From assembly GCA_964016885.1 (NCBI GenBank), contig OZ024742.1:81406001-81470000 (forward strand): 64,000 nucleotides of DNA, read 5' to 3'. Made by a program: the position numbers and the translations under genes. The notes below the pieces were generated by a model. The model was not told the DNA's origin and searched no databases. It saw only the letters and a program-made list of their open reading frames with translations. Below are positions 3,900 through 38,900 of this stretch, piece by piece (the first letter of the stretch is position 1; the number at the start of each line of letters is the position of its first letter). This DNA is from Eledone cirrhosa (lineage: Eukaryota).

Positions 3900-3970
3900 T
3901 ATTTTATCTGATGAGACCGCAAATATCGTCCCTGGATGATATTTGTTTTTGAAATGCGCATAATAAAATA
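3900..3970 (+). ncRNA. Type I hammerhead ribozyme motif
   Basis: TATTTTAT-CTGATGA-[G ACC GCAAATATC...GATATTTG TTTTT]-GAAA-TGCGCA-TA-ATAAAATA. Stem I is a perfect 8 bp, the core is intact, stem III is palindromic and the cleavage triplet is AUA. The base of stem II has two mismatches. Confidence 0.8.
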
Positions 3971-5315: not shown

Positions 5316-5736
5316 GATACATATATATATGAGTCGTGGATTCAATCGTTGGTAAACATAGTAAGTAGTATATATACAGCATTTAATATAGAAATGACTT
5401 CTACAGGACTAGAACTGTTTCATTCGAATTAAATCATCAGGAGAGCCAACTGCCATTGTGGTATTGTGGTATTCATACGTTTTCTTGTGTTTGCAGATGG
5501 TGATTAGGATGAATTGAAGTCATTGGCCAAGGGATGTCAAAGAACAGGGATTCTTTGAAAAAACTATATAATAAAAATATACATAAATGCTGCGTTTCAC
5601 ACATTTGTTTCTTTTTTTTGTAAGAAAATGATGATTGATTTTAAATAAGTGATATAATTTATGGAGAAAAACTCTGCATTTCAATATTACTCAATGTAAA
5701 ATGTAATGAATGCAACATTGGAAAACATTATTTTCT

Positions 5737-10768: not shown

Positions 10769-11059
10769 AGATAGATAGGTAGATAGACACATAGGTAGAT
10801 AAGTAGATGGATGTAATGGAATTTTTGCTATTTACATTTGAATATGTGTGAGATCAGATTTTATCACCTGGTACAGAGAAAGTCTGCCGAGTATTTGTGA
10901 TTGCAAATAGATCTGGAATATTTTATTAGGCGAATTCTAATTTCAGTGTCTGCCAGTTTTTAATTACTTCACACTATCATTATATTTCTAGATTAAATCA
11001 CAGAAATAATTGAATTCTATCTCTACGTTTTAGTTTTGATTTCCACATATATATTTTCG

Positions 11060-11578
11060 GAGTGAGTTAGTCGGCCGGGCGCACCGAAAACGATAAATGG
11101 AAAAGCATGAAACGAAAAGTCATTTCTCACTCTTAGTACGGCTGATACTTAAGTGTAAGTATGTATGTACACGTACATACATATATGTATACAGACGTAC
11201 AGTAGTATGTATATATATACATACATGCACACATATATATGCACTCGATATGCCAATTAGCCTGCTCAGCCGTTAATATGCATAAGGAAAGTATATACTT
11301 TCAGACGCCAACCATCTGACAGATAGGTATACTGACGATAGCTAATAAGCTTGGAACTAGTACATCGTTCCTGTGTCCGTGTTGAACAAAAAGGCGACGA
11401 TGGTTGCCTGAAAACTGTACGGCGTAATTCGGGCTGTTTGTTTACAAACTAACCGGCATTATTATAAATGTTCGGCAAACCCATACGTACATATATATAT
11501 GTGTGCATTTATGTATATATATACATACTAATGTACGTCTGTATACATATATGCATGTATTGTACATACATACTTACA
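11060..11578 (+). mobile_element. Dispersed, 5'-inverted copy of the hammerhead-bearing ~420-bp repeat (retrozyme-like)
   Basis: 11060-11240 matches the array at 26930-28140 in the same orientation, and 11242-11578 matches it inverted. A degenerate hammerhead CTGACGA-TAGC-TAATAA-GCTT-GGAA-CTAG-TA-CATCGT lies at 11332-11368. Confidence 0.85.
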
Positions 11579-12464
11579 ATTGGCGGGGCCAATTGAGGTG
11601 AAATAACTGTGCCGTATTGTTGTCATGAGATGCGAGTGTGAATTTTGTTGCGGGCAGATCGCACGGGGCCCAAGTCTTGGTGTAGATTTTTATTTTCGAA
11701 TTTGATTTCATACATTATTTTTATGCCTTGTTTCATTTTTTGTATTTTAATATGTTTATTCTTCTTATTATTATTTTAATTATTTGGCTCTTTTTATTTT
11801 GATACATTATGTGACAATGTTGTTTTGTCTGATGTGGGGGCGGTGGTGCTGGGATTATAGAGGTTGGCGAGTGGAACTGGCTTTACAGATAGATGTGGGT
11901 GTGTTGGTGGGGGATAGTCAGGCCAAGGTGTTGGGTAGCGGAGCTGGCCAGTAGGCTCCGGTTTGTTGTGGGGGATGGAGAGGGGCATCAAGGGTTGATA
12001 TTTAATTTTTCTTTACAGCAGCAGTTGAAGCATCTTGCTGATTAGATTGTCCAATGAGCAGAGAGAGACACAGAGAGAAGGAGAGAAAGAGAAAGATAGA
12101 GAGAGAGACAGATATTTAGACACAGAGAGTGGAAGCGCGAGGGGGAGTAAGAAGAAGGCCACCCTACCCTACCATCGGTGTTATCGGCTGATAATGACAT
12201 GAAATAGAGGGGTGAGGCTTGGAGGGAGGAGGTCGGGTCTGATCCATTGTGTAGATATGTAGTGCTGCTTTTCCTGTCTGGTCATTACTTTCCTGACGTT
12301 TTTCTTTTGAGGGGGGTGCAGAATTTTAAAGAGAAGAAGGTTAAAGAATGGACGTCCGAAGGTCTTCATACATGGAAGAAAAGAGCTACCCAAGTTTTAG
12401 TCTGACCACCCTCTAGTGTATAAGAGGTCTGGATTTTGTGGCTTTTCTTCTGGTGCTTATACGA

Positions 12465-26510: not shown

Positions 26511-26955
26511 TCAAGTATGAATATTATATATAAATATATACATATACACATACATGTATATATATATAATGGTCTCCACGTTCTCAGCTCCACGGGCACG
26601 CTTACTCTATCTACAGATATTGGGTGGTTCAGTAAACATATATATGAAATATTGTACTCTCTTAATGAAGGATTAAAGTCGGATACGCCGAGCGCTTTTT
26701 TTAAAAACATATTTCATTCTAAGTGTGAAGCTAACACAATTAATCATTTGATTATCTCTGTGTTTCTCAATTTTTATTATAATATCCATCTTTAGGTAAG
26801 TCGAGTCTGGATTTCTACCTGGTACCATTGAACTACTATTTCCAGTAGACTTGAGCGGCCAGGAATCACGAGCAGATTACGCTGAGTTCAGATAACGGGA
26901 ATTTTCTTTAATTCATCACCACCTAAATGCCCCTTTGTTCAACACTGACAAAGGA

Positions 26956-26998
26956 ACGATGGACTAGTTTCTAGCCTTTTAGCTGTCATCAGCACTGT
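26956..26998 (-). ncRNA. Type I hammerhead ribozyme, array unit 1 (best preserved)
   Basis: Minus strand: ACAGTG-CTGATGA-CAGC-TAAAAG-GCTA-GAAA-CTAG-TC-CATCGT. The core is intact with a GUC triplet and palindromic stem III. Stem I extends past an AGGTAT bulge (GGA/TCC). Confidence 0.85.
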
Positions 26999-27365
26999 AT
27001 ACCTTCCTGTCAATCGATTGAACGTTTGAAAGTATATACTTTCCTCATGAATATTAACGACTGAGCAGCCTAATTTGCATATTCAGTGAGTTGGTCGACC
27101 GGACTAACCGAAAACGATACATGAAAAGAAATGAAATGTCAATTCTCACTCTTAGTACGGCTGATACTTAAGTATAAGGATGTATACAGACTTACAGTAG
27201 TATGTATATACATACATACACATATATATATATATATATATATGTACATCTGGGTTTACCGAACATTTATTATACTGTTCGTTTGGTTTGTAAACAAACA
27301 GCCCGAATTAAGCCGTGCAGTGCTCGGCAACCATCGTACCCCTTTTGTTCAACACTGACAAAGGA

Positions 27366-27408
27366 ACGATGAACTACTTTCTAGCTTCTTAGCTGTCATC
27401 AGCACTGT
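27366..27408 (-). ncRNA. Type I hammerhead ribozyme, array unit 2
   Basis: ACAGTG-CTGATGA-CAGC-TAAGAA-GCTA-GAAA-GTAG-TT-CATCGT; stem III is mutated. Confidence 0.75.
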
Positions 27409-27791
27409 ATACCTTCCTGTCAATCGATTGAACGTTTGAAAGTATATACTTCCTTATGAATATTAACGGCTGAGCAGCCTAATTTGCATATTGAGTGAGT
27501 GAGTTAGTCGACCGTGCTAACCGAAAACGATACATGGAAAAAAATGAAATTTCATTTCCTACTCTTAGTACGGCTGATACTTAAGTATAAGTATGTATAC
27601 GTACTTACATATATGTATACAGACTTACAGTAGTATGTATATACATACATACATACACGCAAATATATATGTACGTATAGGTTTACCGAACATTTATGAT
27701 TATGTTCGGTTTGTTTGTAAACAAACAGCCCGAAGTAAGCCGTACAGCGTTCGGCATCATCGTAGCCCTTTTGTTCAACACTGACAAAGGA

Positions 27792-27834
27792 ACGATGAAC
27801 TAGTTTCTAGCTTCTTAGCCGTCATCTGCACCGT
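27792..27834 (-). ncRNA. Type I hammerhead ribozyme, array unit 3
   Basis: ACGGTG-CAGATGA-CGGC-TAAGAA-GCTA-GAAA-CTAG-TT-CATCGT. Stem I is fully paired, but the core has a U4>A change. Confidence 0.7.
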
Positions 27835-28134
27835 ATACCTTCCTGTCAATCGAAAGTATATACTTTCCTTATGCATATTAACGGCTGAGCAGCCTAATTT
27901 GCATATCGGGTGAGTTAGTCGGCCGGGCGTACCGAAAACAATAAATGGAAAAAAATGAAATTTCATTTCTCACGCTTCTAACGGCTGATACTTAAATATA
28001 AGTATGTATACTTGCATACATATATGTATACAGACGTACAGTAGTATGTATATACATACATACATGCACACACATATATATATAATAACGTATGTGTTTA
28101 CCGAACATTTATTATACTGTACGTCTGTATACAT

Positions 28135-28810
28135 ATATGTATAGAAACTCACCAGGAGAATGTTTCGCCATTTAAGTGGGTTCCAATTCGGCCGTGTGGG
28201 TCATCAGCATGTGGAAGGCCAATAGTGTCCGCACTACTAGAGAAAACTAACTTTCGCAAATGTATATATATGGGAAATGCGTACGCGAGGCAGTAACCGG
28301 TGGTATGAACAGAACAAGCTGCTATAGGTGGCAGCCTATACTATTCAGTTTATGGTGTTCAACAGCAGAGAAAGGGCAAGGAGCAATTATCAAGTTAAAT
28401 ATAGGAGCAAATGACTCGCGTATGATACTGTAATTAAATGAGATCAAAGGAAATAGTTTTCCTGGGCATTTTAAAAATGCAATATATAGAGGGGAAAGAC
28501 ACAGGAGAGTGTGTTTTTCTTTACAGGAATTTCAAACCACCAGCGTGAAGAGAATATAAGCTAATAGAGGCATAGGAAATACATTAAAATTAGAAGTATG
28601 AATTAAAATGAGGAACCAACCTCATATCGAGATCACACATGTACCAGGAGAGTGTTTCACCATTTAAGTGGGTTCTAATTCGCCCGTGTGGGTCATCAGC
28701 ATGTGGAAGGTCGATATTGTCTGCACTACTAGAGAAAACTAAAGTAAACTACCTTTCGCACATGTATATATAAGGGAAATACTTGCGTGAGGTAGTAACC
28801 GTAACATATA
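28135..28810 (-). repeat. Second hammerhead-bearing tandem repeat (period ~492 bp, ~1.35 units)
   Basis: ACCAGGAGA.TGTTTC.CCATTTAAGTGGG...GGGTCATCAGCATGTGGAAGG...AGTAACCG occurs at 28151 and 28643. It is unrelated in sequence to the adjacent 420-bp repeat. Confidence 0.85.
28636..28705 (-). ncRNA. Type I hammerhead ribozyme motif, family 2
   Basis: CACATG-CTGATGA-(34 nt, CCA/TGG base)-GAAAC-ACTCTCCTG-GTA-CATGTG, with a perfect 6-bp stem I and GUA triplet. A sister copy lies at 28135-28213. Confidence 0.75.
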
Positions 28811-29447: not shown

Positions 29448-29499
29448 TAGTCTAACAGATTTCTTTCGTTACACATCTACAACATCATCAGTGGTACTA
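29448..29499 (-). ncRNA. Degenerate hammerhead-like motif, family 3 (paralog at 57708-57759 +)
   Basis: TAGTACCA-CTGATGA-T-GTTGTA-GATG-TGTAAC-GAAA-GAAATC-TG-TTAGACTA. The core and stem II are good, but the cleavage triplet and stem I are imperfect. Confidence 0.55.
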
Positions 29500-35939: not shown

Positions 35940-38900
35940 TATAAATAAAAGGAATTCCAACTTTGTCTGATTTACTCGTTTTATTTACAATGATTTAAAC
36001 ATTTTAAAAATGTATAATGGTATTAGAATGAAATAGTATGGCAGAATATTAAATGTTAAGTGTTAATTGAACAAGTACTTTCATGCTTCCGCAATCTTCT
36101 GGTCATTTTGTGTGGTGACAGTCAAGTTTGCAATTTTCAACTGTAAAGAGATGGGTAAATTGTGTGCCTTATATACAGTGAAAAATGGCTCCAGAATGCC
36201 AAATCTTTCAAACTGCATATCGACCAATCGGTGTGTAGTTTCACTGGATTACTAAAGCAGATTGGTTTAGGCGTCACGGTTGGTTGAGCATGTCTAACGA
36301 CTACTAATTGACCCTATCGAAAGCATGAATTGTTTTGCTATTTTTAGAAATGATGAACATAGCATTTTCTAGTAATCATCACCATCAACATCACTTTTAT
36401 TATTATTATGGTTGTTGTTGTTGTTAGTGGTCGTAGTCATAGTCATAGTAGGATTAATATCCCATTATTATTGTTCATTTAGCTTGGATTTGAATTTATC
36501 AATAACATTCTTTTCTTTGATTTTTCGCTTGATTTCACTTGGGCTGTGTAATTTGTAGAATGGAAATATTATAAATATTCACTGACCACATGTTGCTCTA
36601 TGGCTACTTAGGGGTATCTGACGGACATTTGGGTCTCTGATTTGCTGTAGGTGTACTCGTGCACGTTCCGATAGAGTGTTTCCAGTTTGAGCGACATATA
36701 GTTCTTCACAATTCGGGCATTTATTGCAGTAAATTAGATTTCTGATTTTGCAGTTCATATTTGCATTTGGGAATATTTTTCCAGTTTTTGTTTTCATATA
36801 TTGACCGGCGTGTATGGATTGAAATGTGCCACATTTACTATCATTGCATTTAGATACAGTGAATGATTGGTATTTGTTGTTAATGTCAAACTTTGCTTTT
36901 GTTAGTAATTGCTTCAAATGTTTCGGCTGTCTTTTACTAAGACTCAATGATCGATCTGTGATTAAGCCTTTTAATTCATTACTTTGAATAATCATCGGTA
37001 GGTTTGCTTTGGCAGTGTTGAATATATTCTGGTGACATGGGTTGCGTGCCATTATAAATGGTATGACCAGTTCTTCGTTTCTTCTTCCTTGGGTTGTCCT
37101 AAGTTGTTGTATAGGTATTTTTATAGCCCGCTGTATGCCATTTTCTATAAGTAGAGATGGGTATTTTTAGATGTTAGGCGTTTGTACCTGGTATTCGTAT
37201 CTTCTACAATGGTACAAATTCTTCTGGCTAGGCAGTATGGGATGTTGCGTTTTGTATGAGGTGGATGGCACGACTTAAAATTCAGATATTGATGTGTGTC
37301 TGTGTGTTTATAATATATATCCGTGGTAATGGTGGTGTCGTTTTTGATTATCATTATATCTAGGAATGGTAATTTGGTACTAGTCATCTCTTTTGTGAAT
37401 TGGAGAGATGGGTGTAGGTTATTCAGGAGGATATTGCACTCATCCAGAGTATATAGAGATTCTGTCCAGATGATGAAACAGTCGCCAAGGTATCTCTTCC
37501 AAGATTTTTCAATGTACTTTCTAAAGTCAGTGCTATATTTATCCTCCTTTTCTGGTAGAGTTGTTGTTCTAAGTATAACATTACAGAGTTCGCGTAAACG
37601 GGAGCAAACTTCGTTCCCATCGCTGTGCCTCTAATTTGGATGTAATTATTTCCATTGAAGAAGAAAGTGTTGTTTTCCAGAATAAGTTTAACTGCGTCTA
37701 ATATAAATGGCGCTGTGAATCTGATGGGAATCACTTCTCTATCTTTTTCCACCCAGTATTTAACCGCCTTTATTCCTAAATTATGTGTAATGCTGGTGTA
37801 AAGGCTTACCACATCAAAACTAAGTAGAAGTGAATTCGTTTCTGTGGTTTTGGGAAGATGAGACAGGAAGTCGATATCATCCCGGATGAAACTGGGTATG
37901 TGAATACATAGTGGTTTCAAAATAATGTCAACAAAATTGCTTAGACGGTGGGTGGGGCATGTTGGACCAGCTATAATAGGTCTAAGTTTTAAGTCTTTTG
38001 GGTGTAGTAATTTAATGTACTCACTGTTGTGTTCTTTTACTGCCAGTTGTATTTCTTTTGACTTATGAACTTTCGGTAGACCATACAGGTTGCTGGGTTT
38101 TGGCTCAAAATTGGTGATGTAGTCTCTTTCCTTATCAGTAAGTGAGTTGCGGTATTTTGAAGCCAGGTTGTTGATCTTCTTCATGATGTTGTGGTCTATA
38201 TTTGACAGTATTTAATGATATAATGTTTTGCCTTTCAGTTGTTCCTCAACCAAATCTTTGTAGTATTCTGCATCCATTATAACAACTGCACCCCCTTTAT
38301 CTGCTTGTTTAATTATTATTGTTTTATCATTTTGTATACGTTTAAGTGCAGACATTTCTGATTTGTTTATGCTTGGCCTAACATTAGCATTACGTCTAAG
38401 AGGAAATTTAGACAGGATGTCAATGTATTGGTCGAGATAGATATTTCTTCCTTTTGGCGGAGTGAAATTTGATTTATTCTTTACTAGTGATTCATCACCC
38501 TCATTACTTTTATCAGCGAAGAATTCTACAAGACGTAATTTTCAACAGAATTATTGGGTATCCTCCTTCAGTTCTTGGTGGTTGACTGTTAGAGTCGGTG
38601 TGAATTTCAGTCCTTTTGACAGAATTTGCATTTCATCATTGTCAAGATCTCTTTTGAATAAATTAATTATTTTAGGATCTATGTGTACATTTGTTTTGGG
38701 TATGTTTCCTGCTGGAATTTTTCTTTTTCCGGTTTTTGTTGTCTTGACGTTAAAAAGTGGATTTTTCTCTGTTCAGGATTTATATTCCTGTTGGTGTTTG
38801 CTTGATGAACTTTTTGTCGTGATATTATATTTGGTTTCTACTCTATCTTCTCCAATAACTTCCTTTAAGAAATACATGGGTATTTAGATTTTAATCATTC
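35940..38900 (-). mobile_element. Penelope-like element (RT + GIY-YIG), decayed, near full coding length
   Basis: LYGLPKVHK, LRPIIAG, SFDVVSLYTSI, GTAMGTKFAPVYAN, LPFLDI, DIYYK.TDTHQYL...SCHP.HTKRNIP and NLIYC.KCPNCEELYVAQT...LSER..H, with several frameshifts. The 5' boundary is approximate. Confidence 0.93.
36066..36108 (-). ncRNA. Minimal hammerhead motif in the Penelope 3' pLTR (degenerate)
   Basis: Minus strand: AATGAC-CAGAAGA-T-TGC-GGAA-GCA-T-GAAA-GTAC-TT-GTTCAATT. U4>A change, GNRA loop 2, palindromic stem III. Confidence 0.6.

Follow-up and report, generated by a model that had tools for sequence, protein, structure and literature searches.

Fixed 3' ends and paired inverted arms in a retrozyme family of Eledone cirrhosa suggest Penelope-like two-ended priming as the probable origin of a decayed insertion

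How a non-coding hammerhead repeat came to be copied over more than its own length, with one part of the copy turned round, is the question raised by positions 11060-11578 of the 64,000-nt stretch of the Eledone cirrhosa genome analyzed here (the window; contig OZ024742.1 of assembly GCA_964016885.1, positions 81,406,001 to 81,470,000 of the forward strand). Unit positions below refer to the natural 438-nt unit, with position 1 counted from the cleavage site. The inverted arm of the locus (11060..11240, minus strand, which carries its hammerhead sense; unit 136-316) starts at GAGTGAGTTAGTC, and the forward arm (11242..11578, plus strand; unit 312-438, then 1-222) starts at CACTCGATATG and ends exactly at the family's fixed site A (CATACATACTTACA). 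Both match an array at 26.9-28.1 kb of the window, the left arm in plus orientation (86% over 184 nt) and the right arm in inverted orientation (82% over 344 nt). This array (26934..28142, minus strand) holds ~2.8 units of another subfamily, with unit lengths of 426 and 410 nt and a short inverted piece at its right end, and is itself a dispersed insertion.

The arms overlap by 5 nt, CACTC at 11242..11246 (plus strand) recurring as GAGTG at 11060-11064. In addition, a block of 87/86 nt occurs in both, as copy 1 at 11154..11240 (minus strand, unit 136-222) and copy 2 at 11493..11578 (plus strand); the copies are identical at 82 of 87 positions and differ by four substitutions and one deletion, and unit 223-311 is present in the left arm alone. 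At 181+337-5 = 513 nt (525 unit positions), the template exceeds one unit in length. The first-pass annotation had described this pair of overlapping arms, the block common to both segments, a template exceeding one 410-426 nt unit and a passage through the hammerhead cleavage site (11362/11363, in the right arm), and all of this was confirmed. The rare allele G206, seen in 14 of 431 observations in the family, is borne by both arms, in either copy of the block, and private substitution rates do not differ significantly between the left (4/181) and right arm (14/337; p = 0.32), which fits one event and one source.

The two ends of the copy are unlike. The right end is site A, and the left outer 3' end, at unit 316, is neither of the two fixed sites of the family; it lies 33 nt past site B (window 11093) and meets the start of the right arm. 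The left junction (11044..11059, no strand assigned) comprises a short TA tract, likely a remnant of the target, followed by TTTTCG(G). CATAT at this junction is complementary to unit 318-322, and TTTTCG(G) is a 7-nt inverted copy of 11084-11090, possibly a templated filler. The left flank proved single-copy in a flank search for an empty site. The right flank bears no TA tract and consists, outside the element, of a truncated fragment internal to an unrelated high-copy repeat (11583..11688, plus strand), for which 839 candidates were found; all 14 copies read extend upstream of this fragment. Other copies lie within ORFs bearing a motif that we take to be that of a non-LTR reverse transcriptase, and one ORF piece from these copies had no match in Pfam. 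The same repeat also borders another mapped copy of the family (L152). Neither a target-site duplication nor a poly(A) tail was found at the locus.

A descriptor search located a decayed type I hammerhead at 11326..11368 (plus strand); its decay is absent from the first-pass annotation. It comprises CTGACGA (11332-11338), stem II (11339-11352), GGAA (11353-11356) in place of the family's GAAA, and the cleavage position 11362/11363, with a minimal, palindromic stem III of two pairs; 5 nt of the 5' strand of stem I are deleted, and the copy no longer folds as a hammerhead. An intact copy (L014) does fold as type I. The family core reads CUGAYGA, GAAA and GUH, with stems I, II and III of 6, 4 and 2 bp, and 92-98% of 291 near-intact copies preserve the pairing of these stems, which are conserved rather than covarying. 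The exception is the 10.1-11.1 pair (unit positions 415 and 428), which is U.U in 195 of the 291 copies and C.A in 77, neither a standard pair, and whose two positions covary between these states. Because of this pair, it is uncertain from the sequences whether the family ribozyme would cleave itself. Rfam gave no hammerhead at the gathering threshold in the 64-kb window and no hammerhead family at E<=1 in the 26.9-28.1 kb array, and its miRNA-like matches were rejected as TA-rich noise. Hammerhead-like cores from at least three other repeat families were also seen in the same 64 kb, at 28207 (-), 28699 (-) and 58239 (+), at 29491 (-) and 57716 (+), at 3908 (+) and at 5440 (-).

Units of 410-440 nt, non-coding, occur in tandem and dispersed in thousands of copies; across the 3.0 Gb genome a 23-mer of the unit has 1617 exact matches and a 67-mer of the ribozyme 696. 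We mapped 257 loci, this one included, with 284 elements not touching a locus edge. The other loci came from four samples: the 29 best matches, 92 loci from the first 100 of the 1617 23-mer matches, 55 distinct loci from inversion-requiring patterns (70 of 82 matches returned, 15 duplicates removed), and, as the replication or intact-ribozyme sample, the first 80 new loci of the 67-mer. Mapping was done with BLAST, short segments of low identity being discarded; in TA-rich parts the mapped ends may be off by several bases. No ORF was found in the element, no recurring coding extension in the flanks of mapped copies, and no excess of target-site duplications (2/283 vs 1.95 in shuffled data). 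Judged by its unit, copy pattern and hammerhead core, the family would be classed as a non-LTR retrozyme, agreeing with such elements in the features testable on sequence. Some copies have been caught up in other duplications: at L002 (900-1310 and 2140-2400) the DNA flanking an element copy is duplicated in inverted orientation, and the copy lies inside this larger duplication; at G000 C10 25.86-25.88 Mb (L187-L189) the same inverted element recurs every ~6.5-7 kb as part of a larger tandem duplication; and at L125 (358-1681) eight rare alleles are common to the second and third of its three units, suggesting tandem duplication after insertion.

Across the family, the outer 3' ends, taken in hammerhead polarity, are strongly concentrated. 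There were 173 at site A (unit 202-232, about 222, after CATACATACTTACA) and 180 at site B (unit 260-285, about 283, after CTTTTCCATTTAT; ~60 nt from A), so that 353 of 435 ends fall at A or B, and only 4 of 435 lie within 10 nt of the cleavage site. The replication sample alone gave 116 of 126 ends at A or B and none at the cleavage site. Over the first three samples together, (TA)n adjoins 185 of 236 A or B ends and 14 of 72 other 3' ends. The 5' ends show no such concentration, and 6 of 473 fall no more than 10 nt from the cleavage site, vs 22.7 expected. Since the fixed ends are 3' ends, mostly adjoining (TA)n, and the 5' ends are scattered, the data support a copied RNA of hammerhead polarity, as had been proposed from this single locus. 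A third fixed priming site near 316 was considered and found no support in the unbiased samples. A predicted AC-rich hairpin (z -2.6) has site A in its loop; Frangieh et al. (2024, PMC11167929) report such a position for a Penelope-like reverse transcriptase start.

Segments longer than one unit numbered 220 of 473, and 348 of 473 cross the cleavage site, partly a result of how loci were selected; among single-segment copies, 53 of 75 in the first samples and 20 of 32 in replication exceed one unit. These results support the view that the template is not a cleaved linear monomer and that a span above one unit is ordinary for the family. The first-pass annotation had inferred a template beyond monomer length that runs through the cleavage site and had suggested tabulating the ends and lengths of dispersed copies; the tabulation makes such a template the family norm, with many copies above one unit and few ends at the cleavage site.

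Inversion is likewise common. Among samples not picked for inversion, one set of 137 elements (this locus among them) contains 57 head-to-head junctions, and in the replication sample a head-to-head inversion is carried by 47 of 82 elements. Two-armed elements with both ends standard nearly always combine one A with one B (A/B 75, A/A 3, B/B 2; p = 2e-17; 30 vs 1 in replication). Moreover, the two arms of an element share rare variants: 66 of 382 rare alleles (17%) are common to both arms of 65 A/B elements, against 47 of 3659 (1.3%) in a subfamily-matched cross-pair control, a 13-fold excess, and only two of the 65 (L143 and L151) have arms from different subfamilies. This pairing and the shared source of the arms are quantified here; a one-end tail is already known qualitatively. 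The template stretches copied into the two arms of A/B elements overlap widely (medians 427 and 430 nt), and in 36 of 75 each arm includes template that the other lacks, as also at this locus, which argues against fold-back on the first cDNA; fold-back was therefore rejected as a general mechanism. Both target ends were thus likely primed on one source template.

These properties can be set beside three known systems. Like metazoan non-LTR retrozymes, the family is a non-coding repeat, both tandem and dispersed, each unit of which holds a single type I hammerhead; a stem III of 1-2 bp with a palindromic loop, thousands of copies and co-occurrence with Penelope-like elements are further common features. 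The family differs from them in the U.U (195) or C.A (77) at 10.1-11.1 of 291 copies, and its units of 410-440 nt are at or slightly above the 170-400 nt of the retrozymes described by Cervera and de la Pena (2020, PMC7229834). In a preprint, Li et al. (bioRxiv 10.64898/2026.07.22.740005) regard animal retrozymes as non-autonomous Penelope-like sequences on the basis of distribution and trees; insertion ends, inversions and fixed priming sites do not appear in the covered portions of these two sources.

For Penelope-like elements, Craig et al. (2021, PMC8557442) describe truncated copies in inverted orientation, partial tandems, a tail that is often confined to one end, and (TA)n targets, and treat the origin of the inverted copies and of the one-end tail as an open problem. 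In vitro (PMC11167929), both strands are cut and extended, two internal starts that serve either strand bound the tail, and ribozyme cleavage is not needed; pairing per molecule is absent from the portion covered. With EN+ Penelope-like elements our family accordingly shares partial tandems, an inverted 5'-truncated copy, a one-end tail, (TA)n targets, two internal reverse transcription starts, extension of both strands and no reliance on ribozyme cleavage; unlike them, it has no ORF and a tail of ~60 nt rather than 30-40. The Penelope-like marks of insertion are all present in numbers, namely two internal 3' ends (353/435), a one-end tail (A/B 75 vs 5), partial tandems, inverted copies (57 junctions in 137 elements, and 47/82) and TA flanks (185/236). 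L1 twin priming, as set out in Meyer et al. (2010, PMC2837659), resembles the locus in having an inverted 5' part that meets the beginning of the 3' part with its outer end, and in its short junction overlaps. The family, however, shows no poly(A) tail and no target-site duplication (2/283 vs 1.95), its primary priming is internal, and most of its arms read far past each other, which is impossible from one linear L1 mRNA. The literature searched, mostly outside subscription papers, contained no report of the one-A-one-B rule and no paper combining retrozymes with twin priming; papers on Penelope-like elements and twin priming, judged by title and abstract, concerned telomerase or L1.

The locus is probably a decayed retrozyme insertion, produced at a TA-rich target by Penelope-like two-ended priming on an RNA that was longer than one unit or had not been opened at the ribozyme. 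Such an RNA would serve as template, a Penelope-like RT-endonuclease would cut both strands of the target, each DNA end would prime reverse transcription inward on the RNA, and the two cDNAs would be joined head to head via short microhomology. At this locus the right end would have been primed at A and have run 349 unit positions through the cleavage site, and the left end would likely have been primed at 316-322, with TA complementarity aiding, where the first cDNA stopped. More tentatively, a dimeric Penelope-like enzyme on one RNA, possibly a circle, might always prime at A and B, in which case the locus would record a second primer that slipped to a TA-complementary site and halted the first after one lap of a circle.

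Several other explanations have to be weighed against two-ended priming on one template. That the 5' part of an uninverted copy of 1.2 units was flipped at the DNA level between TA-rich tracts might be suggested by CACATATATAT, which borders the inverted arm on both sides (11044-11054 and 11230-11240), and by the self-complementarity of (TA)n; yet this flank match is no better than that of 145 of 1017 control windows, and reversing such an inversion would place a TA tract and CGAAA within the unit at 316/312, where the unit has neither. Inversions of the family are, moreover, polarised (160 head-to-head vs 9 tail-to-tail junctions in 257 loci, 55 of them picked for being inverted) and tied to the fixed A/B ends, so that DNA-level inversion was rejected as the family mechanism and is very improbable here. 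The wide overlap of A/B arms and the mixed subfamilies of L143 and L151 are what priming of two separate RNA molecules on the two target ends would give; but the 13-fold excess of shared rare alleles and the shared G206 would require both RNAs to come from one source locus, and the abutting end would go unexplained, which makes this reading improbable. Granted two-ended priming on one source, the form of the template is the next matter. One reading, which takes up the circle that the first-pass annotation offered beside an uncleaved multimer, makes the template a covalently closed monomer circle carrying both primers; the A-primed cDNA would have gone round to the second primer at 316 while the second cDNA displaced it. 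The frequent crossing of the cleavage site and the scarcity of 5' ends near it (partly a matter of sampling) agree with such a circle. Where a column recurs in one arm its copies differ by 7.6%, roughly double the private rate (3.95%), which indicates units near-identical at insertion, as a circle or a multimer predicts, and rare alleles at columns present at least three times were found in all copies 11 times (in six elements). Animal retrozyme circles exist and a route has been proposed, with circular templates suggested for copying beyond one unit (PMC4209133 and PMC7229834). Every one of these points, however, also fits an uncleaved multimer. Of 98 segments with repeated columns, those of four loci (L009, L071, L086 and L090) change allele from one unit to the next at several diagnostic sites, which a monomer circle could not produce, so that some copies need multimers. 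Rare alleles were present in only some copies 33 times, although eight of these come from one likely later duplication and ~15 are expected, by estimate, from parallel mutation; in L116 and L119 the patterns are 2:2 and matched by round. Standard-ended arms are not significantly halted at the other primer (14/152 vs 9.3, p = 0.055; 3/79 vs 2.7), and a Penelope-like reverse transcriptase used uncleaved RNA in vitro (PMC11167929). On these mixed patterns the multimer may be put somewhat ahead, and we regard a circular RNA template, a monomer circle at this locus included, as possible but doubtful.

The abutting left end bears on two-ended priming most directly. It could be coincidental if the left arm once reached B one unit further out and ~405 nt were later deleted. 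The right end is A, hence the A/B rule predicts B on the left; most non-standard outer ends do not abut the other arm's start (59/67 beyond 10 nt); the copy is decayed and its right flank is a truncated repeat without a TA tract; the left junction has a 7-nt templated-looking filler; and chance cases must exist among thousands of inverted copies. On this reading the chance of coincidental abutting is ~2.5% per non-standard end. With this locus excluded, 4 of 67 such ends abut within 5 nt (1.7 expected), 8 of 67 within 10 nt (3.2 expected, p = 0.015) and 14 of 67 within 20 nt (6.3 expected, p = 0.003), three thresholds having been examined, an overall enrichment of ~2.5-fold that speaks against deletion. 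The discovery set gave 5/28; a test fixed in advance on the new sample gave 1 of 9 vs 0.42 expected (p = 0.35) and the inversion-targeted sample 2 of 30 vs 1.5 expected, so that the excess comes mostly from the discovery set. The clear cases resembling the locus are L087, L079, L154, L059 and L110, several of which start at AT-rich template next to a TA tract, and a search aimed at the region found L196 ending at 321 and L152 at 315, again contrary to deletion; abutting ends are not significantly richer in TA flanks than the remaining odd ends (p = 0.07-0.16). The share of odd ends is higher in the initial sample (41/192) than in the intact-ribozyme sample (10/126), indicating that many reflect later decay, and the copy at this locus is also decayed. 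The TA tract complementary to unit 318-322, within 5 nt of the end, favours priming, and the 7-nt filler fits either reading. By our estimate from the observed and expected counts, any one abutting end is somewhat more probably real than fortuitous. At this locus the deletion reading appears rather unlikely, internal twin priming is slightly favoured, and we hold with moderate confidence that the left end was a true priming site. The twin-priming geometry proposed by the first-pass annotation thus stands in that the arms abut (316 vs 312), and has to be qualified in that this is a minority form, the usual one being two fixed sites, A and B.

If a dimeric enzyme does always prime one RNA at A and B, two-ended priming would be the normal Penelope-type mechanism and would explain both the one-sided tail and the inverted copy. 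The link between retrozymes and Penelope-like elements has hitherto rested on co-occurrence and sequence trees; here, thousands of short insertions with readable ends offer a Penelope signature on a retrozyme. With the in vitro system already in use, the one-A-one-B rule could be checked molecule by molecule. As a dead copy, the locus is only moderately informative, and the value lies in the family statistics.

Elements combining RT and GIY-YIG abound in the genome (over 10,000 candidates), and several of them show the inverted layout too. The retrozyme unit forms a terminus in none of the 36 GIY-YIG loci examined (20 loci and 16 longer stretches). No RT + GIY-YIG ORF flanked by this repeat as a pseudo-LTR, the mark of an autonomous Penelope-like partner, was found among them, and clustering of the flanks of mapped copies revealed no partner element using the unit. 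A 20-nt likeness of the tail to the 3' UTR of one Penelope-like element, L209, was rejected as too weak (0 of 300 shuffles for L209; for its relatives L210 and L220, 22 and 85 of 300). It lies ~100 nt before that element's TA junction and is a possible lead to a partner element. Within the window, 36582-38211 (minus strand) contains broken ORF pieces, one of which had no match in Pfam; their start resembles that of the Penelope-like ORFs of L232 and L233. Finally, four autonomous Penelope-like elements (L232, L233, L238 and L239) carry a hammerhead-like motif ~400 nt downstream of the ORF, with the unusual U.U pair next to the core, as in the retrozyme family, and a palindromic loop III.
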